Positions 5,254-51,967 of a stretch of 64,000 nucleotides of DNA are shown here, one piece after another. The number at the start of each line of letters is the position of its first letter. The stretch's first letter is position 1. Both the position numbers and the translations under genes were made by a program. The notes under the pieces are model-generated. The model had not been told where the DNA came from. It did not search any database and saw only the letters and a program-made list of their open reading frames with translations. This stretch comes from Tubiluchus corallicola (taxonomy: Eukaryota; Animalia; Priapulida), in NCBI GenBank assembly GCA_030141605.1, contig JAQGDQ010000052.1:744001-808000 (forward strand). Reading direction: 5' to 3'.

Positions 5254-6992
5254 TTACATTGCGTGGCATGATAATTGATGACATAAAGTTTCAGGACTTA
5301 TAATTTGTGTTACGCAAATGTTTCAAAAAGAAATTAAAATACAAAAAAATCAATGAAACTCTTCCAAATTGCCTGTGGAACGTACTTAAATTAAACATGT
5401 TCTTAGATGCTATGTCGCGTCGTCTTCAAGTCAACTAATGTTTATGACATTCTGACAAGCAAACTGACTGTTACATTAAAACTCTCATGTAGATAAATTT
5501 TACGTCAAATAAAGTCACGAATGAAAAATTCGAAAAAATTCTTCCGGAAATGTTGTTTGTTTATTGTCACAAGTTAATTAATTTTATAAATTTTTGCTAG
5601 GCTTTTGAACATGAAACCTGATGGGACGCAGTTAGATGAGTGCCAACCTCTATATTTTACTTTTCAAATTTGCAAACTGATGCGCGAGTCTCAGGTGCAA
5701 ATATTTGATCATATCTAATGCTGTGAGTAAACTTGGTGCTGATCTTTATTCTTTAGGTTTCTAAACCATTGATGGAGAAGAGAAGACGAGCGAGAATAAA
5801 CAGCAGCTTACAGGAGTTGAAGTCAATGCTTTACCTAACCATGAAGGAAAGAGTCGGCAAAAATTACCATAAATTAGAGAAGGCTGATATACTTGAGATG
5901 ACTGTCACATTATTAAAAGAAAAACTTTCGGGTAAGCATAACTATAGCTTATAAAGCAAAATAAGTTAGATTTAAAAAGACGCTATAGCCTAACTGCTTC
6001 TTTATTTGTCAATAGTTGATGTCAAACATTTTCATGATATCTTATTTTGGTGTCGGCACTTGCAAAAGTATTATGATAATTTGAATTAGATCCACTTTCA
6101 CCAACTCGAGACTAATAGGAAACAGTCTTGCTTTAGGAAGCAATTGAATGGATGCCAAATAACTTTATTTATTTTTTGCTAATTTTTAAACTTCATTATA
6201 GAATTTAATAAAAAAATTAAGCTATTTGGCTAATAGAAAAAATTAAATTAAATCAAACAAATTAAACTAATTGGTTATTTTTCTTCATTGTTTGTATGGG
6301 ACAACTAATTTGTACACTTGATATTTTGTTGCTAATTTTTATATTTTTTTATTATGGACCTACTCTTCAGATAATTATATCTAACGATGAGCTACATTTG
6401 CTAATGATGAGTTGTTTCCCTTTGAATATTTTTGAATATCAATGAAACGTAGAATAGAGTTTTTACTGTTAGTTATAAGATCATCTTTCTTTATTTAGAA
6501 TCTCCTAAATATGCAGCTGGGTTTCAACAATGTTCAAATGACGTTGGGCAATATGTACAACCTTGTGTGAGTCCTGAAGTAAAAGAGAGATTGGTACAGC
6601 ATCTGAAAAAGACGTGCAACCGCGTGGCAGCAAAGTGCAGAGATGATGCGGAAACCATGGAAATGAAAAATCGGGCTCCAGTTATGGACCGACTGACCGA
6701 AAATAACGAAAAGCTTAAAATTGCTGATGCAATCGAAACTCTTCATTTTGCTAGCGGGTCAGACTCTACATGCCCAAGCTTTACAACAGAACACAAGCCT
6801 CAAAAGGTTGTACCTGTTGTTATGACAAGCGGAGAAACAGTCTTTCTTTTACCTGGACTTAATTCAGTTGCAAACGTCGTAAGCTCATTTAACACGCCGC
6901 CATCTTCTCCAATAAAAATTCGTGAACCAGCGACTGGTTTTATTGAAACTACTGGAGAGCACTCGTTCCAAGCAGTTTGGAGACCATGGTAA
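4994..6992 (+). CDS. hes: hairy/Hes-family bHLH-Orange-WRPW repressor; exons 4994-5044, 5757-5931, 6499-6992 (239 aa)
   Basis: GT-AG splicing gives MPVETELLQRMSFESKK|VSKPLMEKRRRARINSSLQELK...KLEKADILEMTV (bHLH with basic-region Pro), Orange domain YAAGFQQCSNDVGQY...RLVQHL, hairy-type PVVMTSGETVFLLP, and a C-terminal WRPW. Intron phases 0 and 1 are consistent. Confidence 0.96.
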
Positions 6993-14730: not shown

Positions 14731-15531
14731 CTAGCAAAGGCCCGGCAAAAGATTTTGCGTATAAATACACGTGTAATCAATAATACGCAAACGTCCTACC
14801 AAGTCCTCATTTATAACACAAAGCCCGTAACATCCTGCCTACTTACCTAACGCAAAGCCAGCAGCGTTTACTCCTGCCTACTGTATGTTGCAAAGCAGCT
14901 TTTTGCTGAATTAAAGTTATAGACACAATGGATGACGTCAGCACAATGGAATGCGTCGCAGTTTTCTAAGCGAGAATTTTCGCAGTTTTCTAAGCGAAAA
15001 TCGCCGAAAATAAAACACCTAATTAACTCGTCGATACTCCTCTCGGTGGACCTACCCTAAAATATAGCCCACATCATCGTGTAGCCCTGTCCTTCCTCTT
15101 TGTAAAGAGCCCCATATCTCCTTCCTAGAGTCCCACCGGACGACGCTAGAACGTTTTTCCCGCATGCTGTTTGGTAAAAATTTCGAAAAAATCGCGAGTT
15201 GTGTCCGGGAAAACGCCCGTTGCGGGACGCCCTGGCCCTCTCGGGAATTCTAAATATGCCTACTACACCCACCGCTGAACGGGCTATCTATCCATACCCA
15301 GTACCCCCCTCGGCCCGTTCCCGTTCTCTACATCTCAGCCGTATAACTTTTGCAATTTTTTGCAAAAAACGGCCGAAAAAGGGCCATTTTTGGGGTTTTT
15401 TCGCCCCCCGTTCCTCCCGGTGGGCCCGATTCGAAAAATAAACCATCAATGAGAAGACACTAGATCGAGACCTTTCGTTTGATATATAGATCGCCGCAAA
15501 TGGTGCCGTCGTCGAAGCTGTAGCCTCGAAT

Positions 15532-16082: not shown

Positions 16083-19000
16083 TTAACATTCGCGTTCACT
16101 ATTCCTGTACTTGTCTTGCAATTCGCATTTCAAGTGATTGAAAAGGATCTTATTTCTTGCATTGTCTTCGTCTCTTCTCTTATGAAATGAAGCCCGTGTT
16201 TTCAGTCCTAGGTGTATGACAAAAGCATTGCTCAGCACGAAGAACTTGTAGCCAGCCATGTGCAACTCGCATGCCTGAAACAAAAGCAATTTAGCCGATC
16301 ATTGAAAGTTCTGGTTACACACAGACAGGGCTGGATTACCCTATCATCATCTCATCATCATCATCATCATCACCGTCATCGCCGTCATCTTTATCGTCAC
16401 TGTCATCATTGTCATTAACGTCATCATCATTGTAGTCATCGTCCTCAAATCATCGTTATTATCATCGTCGTCAAATTGATTTGTTTGCAAAATTTACTAG
16501 TATGCCAAAGAATGTTACGTTGAAAGTAATTTCATTGAATAGAAACACGATTTTTCGAGTAAGCACGCCCGTTCTTCAAATGTTTGCAATCATCGTATAT
16601 TTATAGAGAATGAAACTTTAGTTAATACGTCATTTAACCAAATTCAAGTTACGGATGCTAAAATTTCTAAAATTAAAACACAACGAAATTAATTTTGCAT
16701 GTTAAAACTTGTTACTCGATCGTATCACAATATACGTTACTTGCAAGAGGAATATAAGCCAAGCAAAATTTGATAAAAAAGATGTACATTTCGTGTTGTG
16801 TTTTGTTTCTCTCGGAAGGCTCGTAGAGAAAACCAGAAAACACTCCATCAAATTAAACTAGTTTATTAAGCGAGAATTCTGTAAGACAAAAGTATGCAGG
16901 AACGCGAAATGTTTACAGTAAGCCTGAAAATCTGGAAAACGTTTAAGTGTATCTGAAAATGCAAGTATACAAGAGAATGTGTAACTGGCGTCCGCGTGAA
17001 TCTGTGTGTCTCCCTCAGTGGCCTGCTTCGCCTTATATAGGGTGCCAGGGAACATTCCAGACGTTTCTCTCTAGAACATTCTACAAGGTAAGACGATTAT
17101 TCTAATGAAACATTCTACAATGTTCTATTTAATTCTAATAGATGCCAGCGATCTCCACAACAATAGGCTGCAGCCTAGGGCGATTAAAGCATGTGAGGTC
17201 CATACTGTGCATTGCTGAATAATTCATAAAACTTAAAATAAAATTTTAACTTTAAAAAAGGAGGCTAAGAAATCTGGAAATCTGCAAAAGTGGCTTCTCA
17301 TTTGAGATAAAAGGTCCCTGTTTGACGCCTTTTACTTGAAACAATGGGCCCTTGTTTATGGCCCTTTAATAAGCTAAGGGCCTTGAGATAAGGGCCCCTC
17401 TTTGAACCCTTATGTAGCCCCAGCTATGCAAATGTTGGTGAAATATATCACAAAGTGTTCGAGACGTGTGTGAGCAAACTAGAGGGTGGTTCCATCTCAG
17501 GGGGCCCCATAATTTCATTAGCGTAGGTGCCTCAAAAGATCATAATCTGGCCCTGTGTACAGGGTTTAACATCTAACCTTTTGCTAGGAAGACGTGATAG
17601 AAAAACAAGTATATACTGATACAGAACAACTTATTGCATCGATGCAAAGCGGAATTAATTGAGAATCTGTCACACAGATTGCAATTTTGAAGCGTACGAT
17701 CGGGGCAGATTGAACTAAATGGCCTCGAAATTCAGCAGGCCCCATTCCGAGGAATCCATTAAAGGTCCAGTGACACCCTGGCAGACTGTCTGACATAAGG
17801 CAGTAATGACAGATGATTTTGTTTCCTGGGATTTCTAGGCGTACGCAGACTGTCTGACATAAGGCAGTAATGACAGATGATTTTGTTCCCTGGGATTTTT
17901 AGGCGTACACAGACTGTCTGACATAAGGCAGTAATGACAGATGATTTTGTTCCCTGGGATTTTTAGGCGTGCGCAGACTGTCTGACATAAGGCAGTAATG
18001 ACAGATGATTTTGTTTCCTGGGATTTTTAGGCGTGCGCAGACTGTCTGACATAAGGCAGTAATGACAGATGATTTTGTTTCCTGGGATTTTTAGGCGTGC
18101 GCAGACTGTCTGACATAAGGCAGTAATGACAGATGATTTTGTTTCCTGGGATTTTTAGGCATGCGCAGACTGTCTGACATAAGGCAGTAATGACAGATGA
18201 TTTTGTTCCCTGGGATTTTTAGGCGTGTGCAGACTGTCTGACATAAGGCAGTAATGACAGATGATTTTGTTCCCCAGGGATTTTTAGGCGTGCGCAGACT
18301 GTCTGACATAAGGCAGTAATGACAGATGATTTTGTTCCCTGGGATTTTTAGGCGTGTGCAGACTGTCTGACATAAGGCAGTAATGACAGATGATTTTGTT
18401 CCCTGGGATTTTTAGGCGTGCGCAGACTGTCTGACATAAGGCAGTAATGACAGATGATTTTGTTTCCTGGGATTTTTAGGCATGCGCAGACTGTCTGACA
18501 TAAGGCAGTAATGACAGATGATTTTGTTCCCTGGGATTTTTAGGCGTGTGCAGACTGTCTGACATAAGGCAGTAATGACAGATGATTTTGTTCTGTGGAC
18601 TTTTTAGGCGTGTGCAGACTGTCAGACATAAGGCAGTAATGACAGATGATTTTGTTTCCTGGGATTTTTAGGCGTGCGCAGACTGTCTGACATAAGGCAG
18701 TAATGACAGATGATTTTGTTTCCTGGGATTTTTAGGCGTGCGCAGACTGTCTGGCATAAGGCAGTAATGACAGATGATTTTGTTCTGTGGACTTTTTAGG
18801 CGTGTGCAGACTGTCTGACATAAGGCAGTAATGACAGGTAATTTTGTTCCCTGAGATTTTTAGGCGTGCACAGACTGTCTGACATAAGGCAGTAATGACA
18901 GATGATTTTGTTCTGTGGACTTTTTAGGCGTGTGCAGACTGTCTGACATAAGGCAGTAATGACAGATTGTTAAATTTTATATCGGCATTCGACAATCCAG

Positions 19001-22000
19001 AGTGGACATTTTTATACAGTCAACATATGACCCAGATTGTGACCTACTGTTTCGCGTACATAGATTGACTTTTGTAGACAGGAGAAGTTATTTGGTCATG
19101 TGTAAAGTTCAAAACACCTAAATGATGTCGGACCAAACAACAAGGGAGAAATTAAAAAATACGACCCGTGATCAGTTGCGAGAAATGCTGCGGGCCAAAC
19201 AACTGTCAGTTTCTGGTAGTAAAGAAGAGTTAATTCATAGACTCTTAGCAAGTCAGCAGAAACCAGATCATTCATATAATGTGACGTCATGTGAAGCGTC
19301 TGGTACGTCGTCGTATGCTGACGCAGCTACAGCGACAGCGCAGCATCAAGTTGGCGAGCGCAGCCCTTCCAAAGCATCTTCAGGTGCTAGTTATTCGAAA
19401 TCTACGAGACGGTCGAAGAAAAGTGCCAGGGAATTAAAGTTGCATGAGATTAAGATTCAGGAATAGGAGCTGAAATTAAAAGCAATGAAATTAAAACAGT
19501 TAAGACTTGAGAGTGAAGTTACTTCACATAGCAGTGCAACCAGTCAGAAGTTGCGTACAACCATCACATCGCCTGAAATCAAGGACGAGACTTTAGCTAG
19601 GAAACCCATGTCAACCAAGGACAAGGTTACCGATTGGCTTCAAGGAGTGCGTGACGTCACCAAAGCCCAGTCATCAGACACCAAGCCTGCAGTTCATCAT
19701 ATGTCTATGGAGGCCTATCTCACCATGGCAACGAACGACAGTTATGCTAAGGGAGCTCTTGTCTTGGCGCACAGTTTGCGTCGAACTGGTACAGCTCGAC
19801 ATCTAGCAATTTTGGTCACCCATACTGTTTCTAGCAGAGTTATGGCAGAGCTTAGTAATGTTTTTGATTATGTATAATTAGTGATTTTGATAACTTGCAT
19901 TTGCTAGGTAGGCCAGAGCTAAATGTAACGTTCTCGAAATTGCACTGCTGGGCTATGACACAGTTTACTAAATGCGTTTACTTAGATGCTGATACTTTAG
20001 TATTAGATAATATTGATGAGTTATTCAATTATAATGAGCTTGCGGCTGCCCCAGATGTGGGGTGGCCTGATTGTTTTAATTCTGGAATGTTTGTATTTCA
20101 GCCTAGTTTGGAAACTTACAGTAGATTGTTGTCACTGTCACAAACTGAGGCCTGTTCATTCGATGGCGGTGATCAGGGTTTATTAAATTTAGCCTTTCCG
20201 AACTGGAGTTCACAGTTTGACAAGCGCCTACCTTTTGTGTATAGTGCTGCCGTCCAAGGTCGTTACGGTTACCTTCCTGCAATGAAGCAGTTCAGTAGCA
20301 AGGTTAAAGTTGCGCACTTTTTAGGCCGAAAGAAGCCCTGGCATTATACTGAATATGTAAACGGGGAGATCTCCGTCAATTTTTCGGATGACTATGAATC
20401 AGGTTTTCTTCGTAGATGGTGGGATATCTATTTGTCTGATGTACAGCCCTTCTTCCAAAATTCTCCCAGTGAAGGTTTAGAACCTAGCGTTAAACAAACT
20501 ACGCCGTTCTTCCATGCCGCATTTAAATCACCCCAGGTAGAACAAGCTTTAAATATTTCTGCACGTGACTTCGTCCCAGGGAATACGCAACTTCCGCTTC
20601 CGGCTACATGAATATGGTGCAAACAATAAACAGTTATACTGAGCAAATGATGACTTTGTTTGTTTGTCTCCGTAAAGCCCAAACACAGATGATTTTGTTC
20701 CCTGGGCTTTTTAGGTGTGTGCAGACTGTCTGACATAAGGCAGTAATGACAGATGATTTTGTTTCCTGGGATTTTTAGGCGTGCGCAGACTGTCTGACAT
20801 AAGGCAGTAATGACAGATGATTTTGTTTCCTGGGATTTTTAGGCGTGCGCAGACTGCCTGACAAGGCAGTAATGACAGATGATTTTGTCCCCTGGAATTT
20901 TTAGGCATGCGCAGACTGCCTGACAAGGCAGTAATGACAGATGATTTTGTTCCCTGGGATTTTTAGGCATGCGCAGATTGTCTGACAAAAGGCAGTAATG
21001 ACAGGTGATTTTGTTCCTGGGATTTTTAGGCGTGCGCAGACAGTCTCACATAAGGCAGTAATGACAGATGATTTTGTTTCCTGGGATTTTTAGGCGTGCG
21101 CAGACTGTCTGACATAAGGCAGTAATGACAGATGATTTTGTTCTCTGGGATTTTTATGCGTGCGCAGACTGTCTGACATAAGGCAGTAATGACAGATGAT
21201 TTTGTTTCCTGGGATTTTTCGGCGTGCACAGACTGTCTGACATAAGGCAGTAATGACAGATGATTTTGTTCCCTGGGATTTTTAGGCGTGCGCAGATTGT
21301 CTGACATAAGGCAGTAATGACAGATGATTTTGTTTCCTGGGATTTTTAGGCATGCGCAGACTGTCTGACATAAGACAGTAAAGATAGATAATTTTGTTTC
21401 CTGGGCTTTACTGACGTTTTGAGCGTGTGCAGACCGGGTATACTGTCTGACTTAATGTGAGGTTCAAAAGTAAAAGAAAACGAAAAACTAAGAAGAAGTG
21501 TCTTTCAGACAACGTATTTTAACTCATTAAAATAGCGCTCTCTACATTTTTAGACATTACAATACATTTTCGGCCGTTTTTTGCAAAAGTTGTACGTCTG
21601 AGATCTGGAGAACGGGAACGGGCCACGGGTGGTGTTAGCTATGATTAAAATGTATTGTAATAGATAGCCCGTGCAGCGGTTGGTGTAGTAGGCGTATTTA
21701 GAATTCGTGAGAGGGCCACGGCGTCCCGTAACGGACGTTTTCCTGGACCTAACTCACGATGCAGAAAAAACGTTCTAGCCGTACCTGGTGGGACTCTCGA
21801 AATGAGATATACGGCCCTTTAGAAAGAGGAAGAAGAGGTGCCTTTCAGACAACATTTTTCAACTCATTAAAATAGTGGTCCCTACATTTTTAGACACATG
21901 GGAAAACCTTCGTGGCCTTTTTTTCGAATGTGCAAATGAGATTTCAGAGAAAAAAAACATCAAATATTTAGGTAAAAAATATTCTTCTAGTTTAAAGTTT

Positions 22001-25000
22001 GACTGCTGAGCAACGTGCGTATAAGTTTGATGTAATCGACCACCTATATTCTACGTGTAGCTGCCCAAACTTTATTATTCGCCATGCCTAGCAGGATAGA
22101 TGGGCGATTAAGTTTGTGACAAAGGGAAATGATGTCCTATCCTCACTGCGGCCGCATTCTGTGTCATTTTACGTTGAATTAACGTGTAAAAAATCAGAAG
22201 AAATATTTCAAAATGCGAAGAAAGGGAGGTTGTTGTCATTAAGATCATGACGGTACCAACGGCGCTCATTTTAAGTTACCGTATCACATAGAAGCATGCA
22301 TCAAAACTGTTTTAAAAATTATGAAACATGTAAATCCGCCTATGCTATAAAAGAAAATTACATGAAAAATAGTGTTGTGAAAGTCATTTTTGAAGTTGTT
22401 GATCAATCACTTTGTTATGATTGAGTTTCGGCACAGAAGTATGAACAAGAATAAAACATCTACATGTATAATACATATTTGGCACTGCACACAACAGAAA
22501 AGTGTTTATTAAAACAGAAACATGAGTAGCATGACTGCTGCACTGAGAGTGAGAGTGAGAGTGACTAGAAAGCAAAACCAGTCAGTATATATAGGTATAG
22601 GTGACCTATGCAGACTTGCACAGGCTTCACAACAACCATTACTTTAAAATAGGGAGAGAACCAGTGAATATGCATTCACTGGACCATACAATTATACTGG
22701 GGGTAAGTCCGCTGGTAGAATGTAACAGGAGTAGCCAATAGATGGCAGCACCTAATTATAATGTACGATTCCAAGTGTCATAGGATCTTTTACTATGTTC
22801 TAAACAGACCTTTGTCTAAATCTACGTAGACAAAAGCATGGTAACGCGTCAGTAGTGTCTGAGTGATTGGCGTAATTTATTAGGAAGCCACAAAGTAAAG
22901 TTGGAAAGTGTTTTGCTGTAGGAATACACATGCTAGTGTCGAAGAATCCATTGCAAATAACGCAAGTAGCTCGTTTGATTTAATTGAACTATTGCGTACT
23001 TAAGCAATTAGTTCTTTTACAATATCTATATACATTTTAATTACATTAGTGTCTCTCTTTCTGTAAATGTTTCGAATGTCATTATTTTCTAAGTTGCGTT
23101 CGAGATTTACTCTTGTATCTTGTCTAACCAATGGTAACAGACAATGAAAAATTAAATGTTCTGGGGTTTGACTGCCCAAACCGCAAGCACACAGATCTTA
23201 AGTTATTAGTTGTGCTAAACTTAAAAATTAAAGAATTACTTCCAAAATTTGGCGCCTTAGGCAACTGCCTAGTTTGCCTAGTGGTAGAGCCTTCCCCGAG
23301 TGGAGCTCTTAAACGTAGTAGATTAACAGTAGGAGAAATGGCAATAAATGCTGGCTGGTGCAACGAATCACCACTAGGTGGCTTTGAGAAGATGGAGACT
23401 TGTACTGTGTTTTTATTAGTTGGCTAATAAAATAATTCCTGTATTTACAACACCATTAGATTTACCAGTCAGTAAGTATGACAGATATATAGAAACAAGT
23501 GCGTCAGCTCTTCTACTTGGAAGAGGTCGCAAATCATTGAAATACAGGATAGGCTGAGACTGAAGGAGAGCAGACTAGACCAGGGGACTTGGCATTACTA
23601 TCTGTTATATTTATTGTGTTTGATGTTCAATAAACGTGTAGTTTTATAATCAGACTCTTCATAGTTTTGCCATCCCTAAAACCCCAATAATCAGCTATAC
23701 ACCGCCAATACAACGATTTATTTAACTATAGAGTCAGTCGAAATGACAATTTATTATTGAATATTACACTTTAAATGAGGAACGACCAGCTTACCTACAG
23801 GAACAGAGTTTGCGAGAAATGCCTGAGAAATGTGAACTGAGCTGCACATGCTACGAAAGACACGGCCACTGACAAGGGTCTACAGCAGACCTCCTCTTTT
23901 TATAAGCTCAGGTGTGCACGTGACTAGTGGCTTTTACTAACACAAGGTCAGAATGTGAGTCTGTGCTAGATAAAGCCACGTTCACATGCACACCTGAGAA
24001 GTCTACTGTATTCCTCTGCCAGCATTACATTTCATTTCATCACAGACCAGTTCCTTTATTGGACAAAGATTTTCGAAACCTGGCTTTATTGCTGGCTGTT
24101 TATTGCTGTTTAAACTGATCTTCAACACAGAAGTACCGACTGTAAATTTTACTTTTACTTGATGAACCTCTTCCTGTTTGTGTCAGAGAGTGTTAGAAAA
24201 CGGTTGCTTGTATTTTAAATCATGATTATTCAATGGTCAAATGCTCAGGAAATGGTCACTTCAATGGTCAAATGATCAGGAAAACAACTAAAAAACACTT
24301 TCGTCTTACCTGTGAGATCCGGTTGTAACCATATCCGCGAAATCTTTCGTCATATTTTGAGAATCCCTTTTTGGCTATGTAGTACGGTTCCCACAGAGGG
24401 TGCCACACTACTTGATAAAGGACTCGCATCTCTTCACCAAAATCTGCCAGCCATTGCCCATAGTTCGTCATATTTTGGCAATGAGGACAAATGTCTGCGT
24501 AGAATGGCCTGATGATGGTCACATTTGCTGCTACCAATTGAATCAGTTCTTGTTTATTCTCTGGCAACAGTGCGTCCTTCTCCATTTCAAATGCCGGGAC
24601 GACGTAGGCATGGTTGTCACTATCATCGTCGAACTGCAAGTCCCTCCGCGATTGTTTCCTTTGAAGAAATTGCAGAAAGTCTTCGTACAGATTGACATTA
24701 ACCACCATGTCAATATCGAGAACAAAAACGTATTCAGTAGTGGCGCCATCTGTGGCAACATTACGTAAAAAGTTTATGGGATAAACGGAATTTTTATTTT
24801 GATAATTAAAGGTTAACTTCTTTACAGAATTATTCTTATCACAATTTGGAAATCCGCAGAATGACTCAACTCTGCAGTTGTGGTTATGAATGTCACTCCC
24901 ACATTGATGAAAATCTACGAGTGTGGTAAAGTTGACGTTCCTATGGTTACGTAGTCTGACAAGATGGAAGCTCACATGCTGACGTATTGCAGAGAAACAA

Positions 25001-25389
25001 TGACGTAATCTACAAATACTCTCACTGGCTGCCATAACATCGTCATCAGTTGGGGCAAAAACGGCAACCGAAATTTCATTTTGCCAACGCCTTCTCAACG
25101 AAATCAGATACGGCAGATTGTCTACCGATGTCTGAGTGACGACAGTAACACCAAATACGTCAGAATCTTGATGACGAGTCGCTGCCTCACTGCGTACTAA
25201 ATTGTAGATGACGTCATACTGTACCTCGCTGTCATGAAGAAATTTTGCGGTTTCAGTTCTGTAATGTTCACAAATCCGCGACTTCTTGAACAGCAAAAAG
25301 TCTCTTTTAATTGTCCCCAATCCGATGAGAACCAACACAACTATAATATTGCTATAAGTTAAATAAACTTTCACGTGTTCTGATTTCAT
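16083..25389 (-). CDS. B4GAT1: Beta-1,4-glucuronyltransferase 1-like (GT49, B4GAT1/B3GNT1); exons 25389-24310 and 16274-16083 (about 423 aa)
   Basis: N-terminal hydrophobic anchor, VTVVTQTS, YPINFLRNVA, DxD motif (LDID), VVPAFE, WEPYY. Splicing CAG|GTAAGA to TTTCAG|GCA gives YDERFRGYGYNRISQ|ACELHMAGYKFFVLSNAFVIHLG, matching the B4GAT1 C-terminal motif. The start Met is inferred; the ORF is open further upstream. Confidence 0.93.
16810..17162 (-). mobile_element. Solo-LTR-like dispersed repeat, related to 30332-30628
   Basis: Shares cggaaggctcgtagagaaaac...ccacaaca with the 30.3-kb copy; TATA and polyA motifs on the minus strand. No TSD seen. Confidence 0.5.
17781..18967. repeat. 64-bp tandem satellite array, left part (about 18.5 units)
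   Basis: Unit gcagactgtctgacataaggcagtaatgacagatgattttgtt(t/c)cctgggatttttaggcgtgc; period 64 (for example 17941 to 18005). Confidence 0.97.
18968..20685 (+). mobile_element. 1718-bp BEL/Pao-like retroelement derivative carrying glycogenin
   Basis: TGTT...AACA termini; TSD CAGAT at 18963-18967 and 20686-20690, which restores an intact satellite unit when the insert is removed; AATAAA at 20625-20630 followed by a U5-like end; gag-like N-terminus. Confidence 0.8.
19122..20611 (+). pseudogene. GYG: Disrupted SAP/gag-glycogenin fusion; glycogenin GT8 domain about 19707-20449
   Basis: EAYLTMATNDSYAKGALVLAHSLR, RPELNVTFSKLHCW, YLDADTLV, APDVGWPDCFNSGMFVFQPS, SFDGGDQGLLN, YGYLPAMKQF, HFLGRKKPW. 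It has no introns, stops at 19464 and 19875, and a frameshift near 19880. Confidence 0.92.
20686..21455. repeat. 64-bp tandem satellite array, right part (about 11.5 units)
   Basis: Same unit, resuming in register after the TSD and degenerating at about 21375-21455. Confidence 0.95.
21565..21840 (+). mobile_element. Diverged internal fragment of the same Helitron family, opposite orientation
   Basis: cattttcggccgttttttgcaaaagtt...gagaacgggaacgggcc...tgtagtaggcgtatttagaatt is the reverse complement of about 14230-14500. Confidence 0.8.
22373..22634 (-). mobile_element. Solo-LTR-like insertion
   Basis: TGTTGTGAA...TTCACAACA 9-bp terminal inverted repeats; TATATA and AATAAA on the minus strand; it interrupts a repeat also seen intact at about 290-400. 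Confidence 0.5.
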
Positions 25390-26255
25390 GTTGCTTGACT
25401 GTATGCGCCTGGTGTTTTTTCGCAAAAAATAAACAAGATGAACCGGATACGTGATTTCAGGACAGAAAATTGTGATTTGCAACTCGGCTAATTGCATGTG
25501 AACTAACATACTGACAACCAAGCTCAGTTAACGCTGACCTAATGGCCCCACATAACAGCCTAATGACTTAGAGACTTCATTGAGACTTACCAGGGGCTAT
25601 AAATTGCACCGTTAACCACGTCTAAATGTCACTACTGCACTGTGTCACTAAACTTTTAGGAAACTCAAACAGTGATTCCCTGCAGCAAAATTACTTGATA
25701 TTGATGACTTAAAAATTGACTTAACGGTTGTTGTTATGGGCAAATTACCCAATTACCCATCTAATTTGTTTTTTATTTTTCCAGCATGAGGGAGCCAAAA
25801 ACTAAAGGGGACAAATGGGCAATTGCTGGCAGAGACTAACTTGTAATGTGGATAATGCAATTTTTATATGAGAAATTTAATGTCATGCTTCATAAACATA
25901 AACAGTGTGCTCTCTCTAGCCGAACGAAGTAAATGATTTTTGTAAATCTAAGTTTATTAATTAGATAGCAATTTTCTGTGTAATCTTTTTGTTCAAATTT
26001 CTGTAGTTTTTTTTCAAATTGCATTACTGCAAATTTTATGCATTTTTTTTTGTTTTTTCTCCTTTAGAAAATAAAGACTGCAGTACACACCTTATGAAAG
26101 GAACTGTCGTGTTTTGCTGTGTTAACAGTTGTTTTGATTGAACTAATCGTCATTTCGTCATTTTGGACAAGAAGAATAGTTGGGTGATGACTTAGGAACC
26201 GAAATTAAGCAAAGAACCTCACGGTTGTCATAAATATGAAATTTTACATCAACGT

Positions 26256-27887: not shown

Positions 27888-28677
27888 CTAGCAAAGGCCC
27901 CGCAAAAGATTTTGCGTATAAATACACGTGTAATCAATAATACGCTAACATCCTACATAGTCCTCATGTATAACACAAAGCCCGTAACATCATGCCTACT
28001 GTTTGTTTAGCTAACGCAAAGCCTGTAGCTTTTACTGAATTAAAGCTATAAGATTATAGACAGAGTACAATGGATGACGTCACTACAATGGCATGCGTCA
28101 ACAGTTTTCTAAGCGAAAATTGCCGAAAATAGAACATGTAGTTAACTCGTCCCTACTCCTCTCGGTGGACCTACCCTAAAATATAGCCCACATCACCGTG
28201 TAGCACTGTTCTTCCTCTTTCTGACGAGCCGTATATCTCCTCCGAGAGTCCCACCGGGCGCCGCTAGAACGTTTTTCCCGCAGGCTGTTTGGTCAAAATT
28301 CCGAAAAAATCGCGAGTTGGGTCCGGGAAAACGCCCTTTGCGGGACGCCGTGGCCCTCTCGGGAATTCTAAATATGCCTACTAGACCCACCGCTGAACGG
28401 GCTATCTATCCATACCCAGCACCTCCCTCGGCCCGTTCCCGTTCTCTACATCTCAGCCGTATAACTTTTGCAAAAAACGGCCGAAAAATGGCCATTTTTG
28501 GAGGTTTTTGCCCCCCTTCCTTCCGTTGGGCCCAATTCGAAAAATAAGCCCCCAATGGCACGACACTAGATCGAGACCTTTCGTTTGATGTGTAGGTCGC
28601 CGCAAATGGTGCCATCGTCCGAGCTGTAGCCTCGAATCTTATATATATATATACCAAGAATTTTAATATATAGAAGA
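27888..28677 (-). mobile_element. Non-autonomous Helitron, copy 4
   Basis: Full-length copy abutting copy 3, with minus-strand junction CTAG|TC. Confidence 0.87.
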
Positions 28678-36294: not shown

Positions 36295-41922
<5,628 letters not shown>

Positions 41923-48988: not shown

Positions 48989-51367
48989 ATGGCGGAGCAT
49001 GCACGATATTCTCTAGCTCAGATGACACAAATGAAAAGAGATGACTTGTTTGAAGTTGCCAGAAAATTAGGCCTAGATTTTGAGTCCTCACTTACTCGTG
49101 CTCAGCTGATGGAACGAATTTATGAAGTCGCAGGTCTCCGTACTACTGTTGAGGAAGTTGATAAAGCGGGAGACAACTTCAGACCCTGAAAGTGACCCCG
49201 AGGCGGATCCAGGTTCTGGTGGACCAACTGGGATGCCTGTTCAGCAGAAATATGCACAGATGGGAGAGAGTAGAGATTTAAGCGTAAAGCCCAAGTCTTT
49301 GGGCACTACAAAACCTACAATGGGGACGCCTGTTGCAGGCTATAGTGCTCATAGTTCTGTTTTGGATGCCACTGCTCATACTCCGCCCCCTTTGCTGTTT
49401 CGCGATGCAACGATGGCTGAACAGTCTCTCCATGCACCTCCCCCTGGATATAGCATGCCAGACGTCTCTTTGGAAGCTTTGTCCGCTGTAACAGATAACC
49501 CAGCTCAAGTTTTACTCCAGCTTCAGCAACTCCGAGCTGAACAAGTGCGAGATGAGCGTAGATTAGCGGAAATGCAACTTGAGATGAAAAAGTTGGAATT
49601 TTCTGCAGTACACGCTGCGTGGTCAAACCCTGCTCATGGTTCTGCCATTAACTCAAGCTTGGATGCGCCCAATATCTCGACTGCTAATGTAATAAAACGT
49701 CTCACGTTTCGCATGTATGACGAAACAACGGAGGATATTGAGATTTTCTTGGACTGTTTTGCACAGTCAGCTACTGCTAATGCTATTCCTCAGGAATGCT
49801 GGGCTGCGTCCTTAGGCCCTGTTCTAACTGGAAAAGCTGCCATAGCTTACCAGCAGGTCCCACCTGAGCAACTACGAAATTATCCTGTTGTGAGACAAGC
49901 TGTGCTGTCTGCATATTTTCTGAGCCCGCACATTTACCTGAATCGGTTTAGAGCCATTGCAAAGCAGAATAATGAGAATTATAAGCAGTTGTTTCAGCGT
50001 TTAGAAAGAGGATGGAACACATATCTCAATGCAATTGAAGTCGAGTCTTTCGAAGGCGTAAATGAAGCCATTGTAATCGAACAAGGATTGCATTGCATGC
50101 CTAAAGAGCTTGCAACTTGGTTAAAGATGCAGCCTGACACGCTGAAGTCTATTAACAAAATGGCAGAAAGAGCTGATCAGTATATTGCGGCCACTGGTGG
50201 TTTATCAACCGTGAAAACAGGACAGCAGTCTCAACGTACGTTTAATAAGCCAACAAGTAGACAGTTAAGCAATGCTTCTCCTGGTAAAAGTGGAGTTGGT
50301 AACCAGAGTAGTTTCGGTGGTATTAGAGGATCAAGTACTGCTAGAATTCACTGTTTTAAATGTGGAAAACCCGGCCATCGTCGTAGTGAATGCAAAATGT
50401 CTTCGTCTATGCCTAACAGCTGGAGAATTCCACAAAAATCTGGTAACCAATTTTATGGTAAGGCGGCTGAACGCACCAAATCATATGAGAGCATGGAAAG
50501 TGTACCGGATCACACGTTACCCTATCGCTTCTCGGCTCGCATTAACGGCATCAAAGTGACAAGATGCCAGCGTGATACTGGTGCCAGCATCAGCGTCGTT
50601 CTACCCCAATGTGTTAGACCTGATCAGTATTTGGATAGAGCACCCCAATGTATCTTGTGCTTTTGTGGCCAATCAAATAACTGCAAGATGGCAGAAGTCG
50701 AAATAGAGGGACCTGACTTCTCTGGTCTTTTGACTGTTGGTGTAAACCCAACCTTACCCATGGATTTCTTGTTGGGCAATGATTTTGAGTCTGCACTACG
50801 GCCCTTTCCAAACTCGAGCGAAGTTTGTTCAGGAGCTCAAAGCTCTAAAAAGGGAAAGCTCAGGGTAGTGTCTGCCCCCAAGAAGGAAAATGGAAGCACC
50901 ACAGACAGTTCAAACACTGTTAGTGATACTGATGGGAACAATTTTTCTGGCGAGACTAAAACAGCTTTTGCAATTACTCGCTCTAAAGCTGCACAACGTA
51001 AAACGGAGGCTGAAAGAGATGTCCATTTGCAACAACAAGCATTTGCTCCAGTTGATGTCATTGGTCAAGTCAAATCGCACTCCAGCAAGCCAGCTAGCAC
51101 CGGCTTATTGAATTTAGAACTAGATCAGTTGCGAAAAGAGCAAGCAGAAGATGTCAGTATCAGGAATCTAATTGACAATGCAGTCACAGGAAAGAAGGCA
51201 TTGTCTGCCGGCAAAGGCTACTTTTTGCGGGATGGCATCCTTTACTATCTCTCTCATGACAGGAAAGCTGCAAACCCGCGTTCACTTTTAGTTCTGCCCA
51301 AGGGACGGAGAAAGGAAGTGCTCAGTCTTGCCCATGATAACAAACTCTCAGGACATTTTGGAATTAA
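48989..51367 (+). CDS. Gag-protease-integrase (N-terminus) polyprotein; one frameshift near 49122-49189; truncated
   Basis: SCAN-like capsid (W...LGPVLTGKA...Y...RFR...IEQ), CCHC knuckle CFKCGKPGHRRSEC, protease RDTGAS...LLGND, then integrase N-terminus LVLPKGRRKEVLSLAHDNKLSGHFG with no RT in between. Confidence 0.9.
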
Positions 51368-51393
51368 CAAACGGATTATCACAAGTTTCAGAC

Positions 51394-51967
51394 GGGCGGA
51401 TTAAGAATTATGCTAATAAGATTGGGCCCTAAATTTTGATAGGTCTTCAGTGTCCTGAAACCGACGACCAATAAAACTATTTTCGACAGGATAACAAAAT
51501 TATAAAATTGAATTTACTAACGCCTTGGGCCCTAAATTTTGATAGGTCTTCAGTGTCCTGAAACCGACGACCAATAAAACTATTTTCGACAGGATAACAA
51601 AATTATAAAATTGAATTTACTAACGGAGCAATAAATTTTCTTTGAAGACCCGCAGGACGCCACTAAGACGTTTTTCTACGTTGTTTTTCGTGGACGAGCA
51701 AAAATGACAATTTTTTAGAGGTTTTTCGTCCGCCATTCCTTAAAACAGCGTACACGAAAAACGTTTTAGTGGCACTTGATTGAGTTTTTTGGAGGGAAAA
51801 TTATAACTGAAAGAGGAAACCTGGGCTATGCAATGATGTGGGTCTCTTTTACTAATGCCTTTATCAGAATGAAGGGCTGTGAGTTAGTCTTGAGTGCTTA
51901 TATGTTGAGGGTTTTGAGGTCCTTCTTTTAGTGATAGCCTTAGGCCCATGAGACCCTTAATCCACCC
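51394..51967. mobile_element. MITE-like element containing an internal tandem duplication of about 100 bp
   Basis: gggcggattaag (51394) pairs with cttaatccaccc (51956-51967); 51422-51522 is repeated at 51525-51624. Confidence 0.6.

Follow-up and report, generated by a model that had tools for sequence, protein, structure and literature searches.

A glycogenin catalytic domain in the likely Gag frame of a multi-copy LTR retroelement family

How does the catalytic domain of glycogenin come to lie inside a mobile element, and would it do any work there? The question is raised by a 64,000-nucleotide stretch of the genome of the priapulid Tubiluchus corallicola (GenBank assembly GCA_030141605.1, contig JAQGDQ010000052.1, positions 744,001 to 808,000 of the forward strand; hereafter the window), in which a discrete insertion at positions 18968-20685, starting with TGTT and ending with AACA, splits a 64-bp satellite. 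The balance of evidence inclines, moderately, towards reading this insertion as a dead, internally deleted copy of a multi-copy long terminal repeat (LTR) family whose first frame, likely Gag, includes a glycogenin domain, probably acquired long ago from the spliced messenger RNA (mRNA) of a host gene and likely kept because it works.

The insertion contains three consecutive open stretches on the plus strand (19122-19466, 19467-19877 and 19868-20611), read here as one interrupted frame that opens at the ATG at 19122 and encodes, in order, a SAP domain, a linker rich in Ser and Lys with a predicted coiled segment, a glycogenin catalytic domain free of introns and, last, a PAM2-like decamer. 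A preliminary description of the same DNA had noted a SAP-like motif, and Pfam recognizes a SAP domain near the start of the frame (19164-19247, plus strand; residues 15-42; PF02037, E 1.3e-5) with a score of 25.1 bits against a cut-off of 23.9. The linker (19362-19700, plus strand), for which Pfam gives no match, comprises a Ser/Lys-rich stretch in which 9 of 24 residues are Ser, the predicted coiled segment and the sequence KDKVTDWL, and it contains a nonsense codon at 19464-19466. The captured domain follows in two parts on the plus strand. The N-terminal part (19701-19874) begins at a Met matching glycogenin's own start and is identical to residues 4-58 of mammalian glycogenin-1 at 28 of 55 positions; the remainder (19886-20458) is identical to residues 71-262 at 107 of 188, and between the two lies a frameshifting gap (19873-19879, plus strand) at which sister contigs differ from the window. 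Animal glycogenin genes contain introns; here both segments align without one, and both junctions of the domain are in frame with the flanking coding sequence, as the preliminary description had it on each count.

That the captured segment derives from glycogenin is plain from its Pfam match (PF01501, E 1.6e-14) and from its closest solved structure, which is glycogenin-1 for both the 3' part (E 7e-66) and the 5' part (E 3e-11). The residues kept include Lys86, Asp102, Asp104, Asn133, Asp160, Asp163, Gln164, Tyr195, Tyr197, His212 and Lys218. The DAD motif (19985-19993), the equivalents of Tyr195 (20264-20266) and Tyr197, and the HxxGxxKPW motif (20315-20341), all within 19886-20458 on the plus strand, are retained in the window copy, bearing out the claim that DAD, an HFLGxxKPW-type motif and an auto-glucosylation Tyr had survived. 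The same alignment agrees with the claim that the glycogen-synthase-binding tail is missing: the WExG..DY tail motif occurs in 216 of 265 host-type glycogenins and is absent from the element. To judge by its residues, the captured segment could act as a catalytic domain does, yet it falls short of a complete glycogenin.

Downstream of the domain, the decamer LNISARDFVP (20549-20578, plus strand) fits the PAM2 pattern, which occurs in none of the 265 host glycogenins and in 0.3% of shuffled tail sequences; the Pfam PAM2 profile gives no match to it at E 10. The preliminary description had also counted two stops and a frameshift. The copy is dead, and its damage consists of one nonsense codon (19464-19466) and one frameshifting gap near 19875; the final TGA (20609-20611) arose from an internal deletion and is not the stop of the family. 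A predicted fold of the truncated 3' piece is of low confidence (mean pLDDT 40.9).

The captured domain has diverged far from any glycogenin found. Among the protein matches listed (the best 120 of 851 and the best 120 of 1337), the highest identity to any glycogenin is 58%, and identity to animal glycogenin-1 is 52-58%. In a tree of 65 rows hand-picked from the listed glycogenin hits, the element branch measures 1.43 against a median of 0.14, and with so long a branch the tree does not place the glycogenin donor. Change has not fallen evenly over the domain: 70 of the 82 near-invariant columns (95% conserved in the 265 glycogenins) are kept, compared with 40 of 104 variable columns. Three of the 12 near-invariant columns lost lie in the gap and one where the contigs of three sequencing runs (X1, X2 and X3, introduced below) all differ from the window, and most of the others are conservative; the eight substitutions outside the gap and the site at 20244 include Leu9 to Met in the nucleotide-binding strand. 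On this evidence the captured domain is old and apparently constrained.

The evidence on the family comes from public contigs of sequencing runs (X1, X2, X3 and X6) aligned to the element stretch, the alignments of X1 and X3 being repeated without its 3' end. The stretch is present in four of six listed runs, from two studies; X1 and X2 represent one sample, which may be related to the source of the window. Contigs on the stretch number 140 in X1, 69 in X2 and 25 in X3, each run covering 30 of 30 bins, with contig depth uncalibrated and not equal to copy number. No RNA run is among those listed as containing the stretch, X6 has no contigs on it and X5 next to none of its sequence words, none of which bears on expression or absence. 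Beyond the LTR end, 8 contigs of X1, 10 of X2 and 5 of X3 carry different 3' flanks (agreement 0.48-0.54), and in X1 and X2 contig depth over the last 79 bp is roughly tenfold that of the interior. In one X3 contig the 18 letters preceding position 18973 equal window positions 20667-20684, and two X1 contigs have the same end with variants; therefore sister copies have the same repeat at both ends. Direct terminal repeats are thus a feature of the sister contigs, the window copy having a 5' stub only. At 20609 contigs of X1, X2 and X3 depart from the window and continue, those of X1 and X2 by 255 letters or more; the 30 of these letters that are displayed contain, by eye, no stop in the frame of the element. 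The repeat before 18973 and the continuation past 20609 imply two losses from the window copy: nearly all of its 5' LTR, and whatever stood between a point just past the PAM2-like motif and the final 79 bp of the 3' LTR.

The fusion itself is common to the sister copies. The N-terminal junction is bridged without a gap by an X2 contig (19564-19874), and the C-terminal junction by contigs of X1 (20374-20609), X2 (20404-20544) and X3 (20395-20517). All three runs differ from the window at both the nonsense codon at 19464 and the gap at 19875, and the sole other coding insertion or deletion listed for X1 is one of 12 letters, in frame, in a loop that is variable among glycogenins. The window differs from the X1 majority at 25 listed positions in 1751 bases. 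An X3 contig covering 18973-19562 shows nine differences from the window, all common to X1, so nearly the same family is present in both studies. The element therefore belongs to a multi-copy, dispersed LTR family, as the preliminary description had proposed from one copy, on the strength of contigs from two studies, a repeat at both ends and many 3' flanks.

Selection within the family can be read from the one sister contig with all differences listed, an X3 contig covering 19981-20325. It shows 15 differences, of which two are set aside as private to the window; nine of the rest are synonymous and four non-synonymous, giving a ratio of non-synonymous to synonymous change per site (pN/pS) of 0.12-0.20 (p 0.0002-0.006). 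Sister divergence in the domain is, on these counts, mostly synonymous, synonymous change being in excess. Any family of this kind is expected to include dead copies.

Three further features of the contigs were seen. The LTR end (20607-20685) occurs in a number of variants and at much greater depth than the interior, which suggests that solo LTRs are numerous or that related families have different interiors. In X3 depth over the middle of the glycogenin domain (19879-20325) is four to five times that of the 5' part, which might reflect another lineage with nothing but the GT8 segment in common. A second glycogenin-like contig of X1 matches the window only at 19905-19951 and thereafter at 18 of 30 letters by eye; it may represent the host gene or a distant sister family. 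A reading of that contig as host exon followed by intron was dropped, its loose letters staying in glycogenin register. No near-identical host parent gene appears among the X1 loose ends listed, which leave out three, at a threshold of 80% identity.

The ends of the insertion are those of an LTR element. The satellite on its left (17781-18967) was resolved by Tandem Repeats Finder into 18.5 copies of a 64-bp unit with 94% matches, and the right arm (20686-21409), which includes the right CAGAT copy (20686-20690), into 11.4 copies of the same unit. The left CAGAT (18963-18967, plus strand) and its right counterpart form an exact 5-bp target-site duplication that is real because CAGAT is present once at the equivalent place in 26 other satellite units (17 left, 9 right); the TGTT...AACA ends and CAGAT duplication described earlier are both confirmed. 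Of the 5' LTR only a stub remains in the window copy (18968-18973, plus strand), where the TGTTAAA start fits TGTTRNR. The final 79 bp (20607-20685, plus strand) belong to the 3' LTR, with AATAAA at 20625, 14 of 17 letters downstream being G or T, and an AACA end that falls short of the full YNYAACA; AATAAA and a GT-rich stretch have been described for LTRs (PMC3601003). Between frame and 3' LTR lies the junction of the internal deletion that created the final TGA (20605-20611, plus strand), where contigs of X1, X2 and X3 diverge at 20609 and others join at 20606-20607. The leader (18974-19121, plus strand), the expected place of a primer-binding site, has its first TGG only at 19003; no primer-binding site was recognized, the 29 bases that follow the LTR end containing no TGG and the window no tRNA gene, with the 5' boundary of the LTR not fixed by the contigs. 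A purine run upstream of 20607 might be the polypurine tract of an 84-bp LTR, but the canonical LTR start in the window argues for a longer LTR. Although the window copy retains just the opening bases of one LTR and the closing 79 of the other, its target duplication is exact; the two deletions may have arisen during reverse transcription or after insertion. No second copy or other LTR of the element was found elsewhere within the 64-kb window.

Contrary to what the preliminary description implied, the insertion is not a whole element: no capsid, protease, reverse transcriptase or integrase lies inside 18968-20685. Membership of BEL/Pao is defined by a triple Cys-His box in Gag and a reverse transcriptase tree (PMC554778, PMC4580426, PMC3118150), along with the domain order PR-RT-RH-IN, hallmarks that would lie in the part deleted from the window copy. 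The first frame is likely Gag by its position after the LTR. BEL/Pao elements have a 5-bp duplication and a Ser-rich, coiled and PAM2-like Gag N-terminus, and from such N-terminal features only, assignment to this superfamily is judged fairly probable. Relatives were also sought more widely. A protein with a GT8 domain at residue 1023 (P0212) is probably a long host isoform, having no other Pfam domain and the tail motif present. Two exact-pattern scans of metagenome contigs returned no loci; among viral contigs, none of two candidates matched the GT8 part, and three of 17 gave weak, low-complexity matches to the SAP part (E 7e-4).

A sequence of events can be proposed. A spliced glycogenin mRNA would have been taken up by template switching during reverse transcription, the route of LTR-mediated retrocopies (PMC5131818), the capture landing in an unstructured N-terminal part of the first frame, likely Gag, which in sister copies would continue into capsid and pol. 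Glycogenin domains would pair between neighbouring Gag molecules, the fusion gathering many domains together, and each captured domain, drawing on UDP-glucose, would extend a short alpha-1,4 chain from its equivalent of Tyr195. Chains of 7-12 glucoses on Tyr195 are reported for glycogenin (PMC7046021; PMC12267440), and for the human protein it is reported that the catalytic domain, when isolated, becomes glucosylated and attaches to the CBM21 domain of PTG, and that glycogen synthase is bound by the C-terminal region on its own (PMC9287172). The fusion would not directly recruit glycogen synthase, because it lacks the tail motif present in 216 of the 265 host proteins. What results would be a particle coated in short sugars and able to bind glycogen-associated carbohydrate-binding proteins; such a coat could steer the particle to glycogen-rich cytoplasm such as that of oocytes, or shield it. 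Copies in working order would likely produce a coat protein that adds sugars to itself.

A bolder form of this proposal is possible, if somewhat doubtful: an autonomous animal LTR element, probably BEL/Pao, whose Gag is an active glycogenin and which primes its own alpha-glucan coat from cytosolic UDP-glucose, free of synthase control, riding the glycogen machinery into the germ line or hiding. If true, this would be the first known case of a retroelement that glycosylates the protein of its capsid. A retained self-modifying metabolic enzyme would tie retrotransposon particles to glycogen biology, captured glycogenin would reveal a new pressure acting on Gag, and a natural tail-less glycogenin would separate priming from synthase recruitment.

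A number of observations weigh against an old, working capture. Neither capsid, Cys-His box, protease, reverse transcriptase nor integrase was seen, only 30 of the at least 255 letters past 20609 being displayed, and protein and Pfam searches with the remaining part, a low-complexity region, found no similarity to a Gag, capsid or pol of BEL/Pao, elements that are under-represented in protein sets. No protein with a SAP-glycogenin fusion occurs among the matches listed (the best 120 of 851, 120 of 1337 and 150 of 386), which are ordinary glycogenins and SAP proteins, the 150 matching by glycogenin, SAP or low complexity; the 24 matched proteins scanned in Pfam carry no Gag or pol domain, and none of the 11 candidates of a further protein search showed the fusion or a likeness to Gag. 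Because no contig of X1, X2 or X3 covers the whole fusion, an unbroken copy is pieced together only from overlapping contigs of similar depth. The long branch could partly reflect an unsampled host lineage. The estimate of selection is small, 13 changes in one contig, and its contrast with the window's own split of 7 to 10 is not significant (Fisher p 0.16); ten further domain differences listed for X2 and X3, from incomplete lists, are four synonymous and six non-synonymous. The very contig that yielded the estimate, the deepest of X3 there (127), is interrupted by a 2-letter gap at 20136 and altered in the Asp163 codon; gaps also occur in other X3 contigs, of 1 letter at 19631 and of 13 letters at 20557, and in X2, of 1 letter at 19144 and at 19154, with three contigs for each.

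What else could have produced such a family? The glycogenin sequence could be passenger cargo, a non-autonomous chimera of LTR element and retrocopy in which glycogenin took the place of some element sequence and was multiplied in trans with no benefit to the element, its conserved residues coming from a fast-evolving host gene or paralogue. Chimeras of this kind are frequent among animals, many of them in frame (PMC5131818); pol was not seen, frameshifts mar many of the sister contigs, and the host's own glycogenin gene was not isolated for comparison. The captured segment, however, begins neatly at the start Met, finishes where the catalytic domain does and is in frame at either side, the frame goes on past the PAM2-like motif in X1, X2 and X3, divergence within the family is mostly synonymous, and no DNA of at least 80% identity with exon-like loose ends is found among those listed in X1; passenger cargo is accordingly considered unlikely, with an appreciable chance of being right. 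The domain could also have been kept for some other role, whether Gag dimerisation, binding of UDP-glucose or glycogen, decoy pairing with host glycogenin, or glucosylation of another protein. A branch ten times the median and the eight substitutions at near-invariant columns, Leu9 to Met among them, would agree with such a change of role, as would variability of the loop after KPW, which affects self-glucosylation in human GYG2 (PMC12267440). Retention of all the residues named above, Tyr195 and Tyr197 among them, speaks against it, since an acceptor Tyr is needless for pure binding, and its chance is put as rather small.

Two further alternatives are much less likely. A processed pseudogene that arose once, from one template switch, or an artefact of assembly could be suspected from the dead state of the window copy and from the lack of any contig, listed or implied by bin depths, across the window's own 5' satellite junction. 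Both are already largely refuted by the sister contigs, in which the fusion occurs at high depth and in many variants in runs of two studies; the target duplication is exact and the best identity to any glycogenin among the matches listed is 58%, and this explanation is very improbable. The preliminary description had itself allowed for a one-off retrocopy, single in copy, near-identical to host mRNA and decaying neutrally; the family is instead multi-copy, at most 58% identical and changed mostly at synonymous positions. Still harder to credit is a domesticated or host-serving gene that happens to be amplified: constraint on the domain is silent on whom it serves, but LTRs at both ends, many insertion flanks and many decayed copies form the pattern of a mobile family.

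Outside the insertion, the window holds other mobile and coding sequences. A 764-residue Gypsy-type frame (49110-51404, plus strand) has a SCAN-like capsid (E 3.6e-8), a CCHC knuckle and weak matches to protease and integrase zinc finger, with no reverse transcriptase between the latter two in a Pfam scan; it may be an internally deleted element. A long single-exon frame on the minus strand (24268-25527) encodes a GT49 glycosyltransferase of B4GAT1/LARGE type (E 4.6e-70), and a second GT49-like fragment was seen by eye at 16083-16298 (minus strand). Further frames are a single-exon sulfotransferase recognized by Pfam (40966-41922, plus strand) and the last exon of a hairy/HES gene with an Orange domain and a WRPW end (6453-6992, plus strand). 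A related dispersed repeat was seen by eye at 15052-15441, about 21500-21900 and 28146-28547, one copy adjoining satellite.

The nearest parallels to an old, working capture of glycogenin are host domains that LTR elements have taken up and kept under selection (PMC6673714, PMC9289625). In CopiaMBD, arthropod Copia elements carry a captured methyl-CpG-binding domain (MBD; PMC6673714), and the likeness extends to a host domain in the reading frame of an animal LTR element, fast evolution with key residues kept, and an excess of synonymous change. The CopiaMBD cargo differs in being a chromatin reader whose activity was tested in full-length elements, whereas the domain described here, near the N-terminus of the first frame, is a predicted enzyme of carbohydrate metabolism in a family whose pol was not seen. 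Orchid Ty3/Gypsy elements that carry an AlkB N6-methyladenosine (m6A) demethylase likewise have a host enzyme domain fixed in an LTR lineage, but as a separate frame, acting on RNA and in a plant; in the text of that screen of 121 plant genomes, figure and supplement aside, no glycosyltransferase is among the domains given (PMC9289625). The LTR-mediated retrocopies of animals, with intronless host sequence lying in sense and in frame between pieces of an LTR element (PMC5131818), illustrate the likely origin of the fusion. As described there they are young and near-identical to their parents; the glycogenin cargo, at best 58% identical among the matches listed, appears old, multi-copy and constrained. 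BEL/Pao elements (Semotivirus) such as Sinbad and Achilles share an animal host and TG...CA LTR ends, and the descriptions compared include no glycogenin (PMC554778, PMC4580426, PMC3118150); the Tyr-tRNA-type primer site reported for Achilles is not evident in this element. In the literature searched, with most subscription journals, Repbase, Dfam and supplements outside its scope, no capture of glycogenin by a retroelement was found, nor any precedent for a SAP domain with Bel-Pao, the slash spelling not being matchable. With animal glycogenin-1 (PDB 1LL2, 3T7O) the element shares the whole catalytic domain, DxD, HxxGxxKPW, Tyr195 and Tyr197, and differs in being 52-58% identical, in having no synthase-binding tail and in its fusion into a mobile-element frame. 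In the literature compared, the targets of captured domains are nucleic acids or chromatin (MBD, AlkB, chromodomain) and membranes (env). Host-domain capture by LTR elements is already known; a glycogenin cargo appears to be new.

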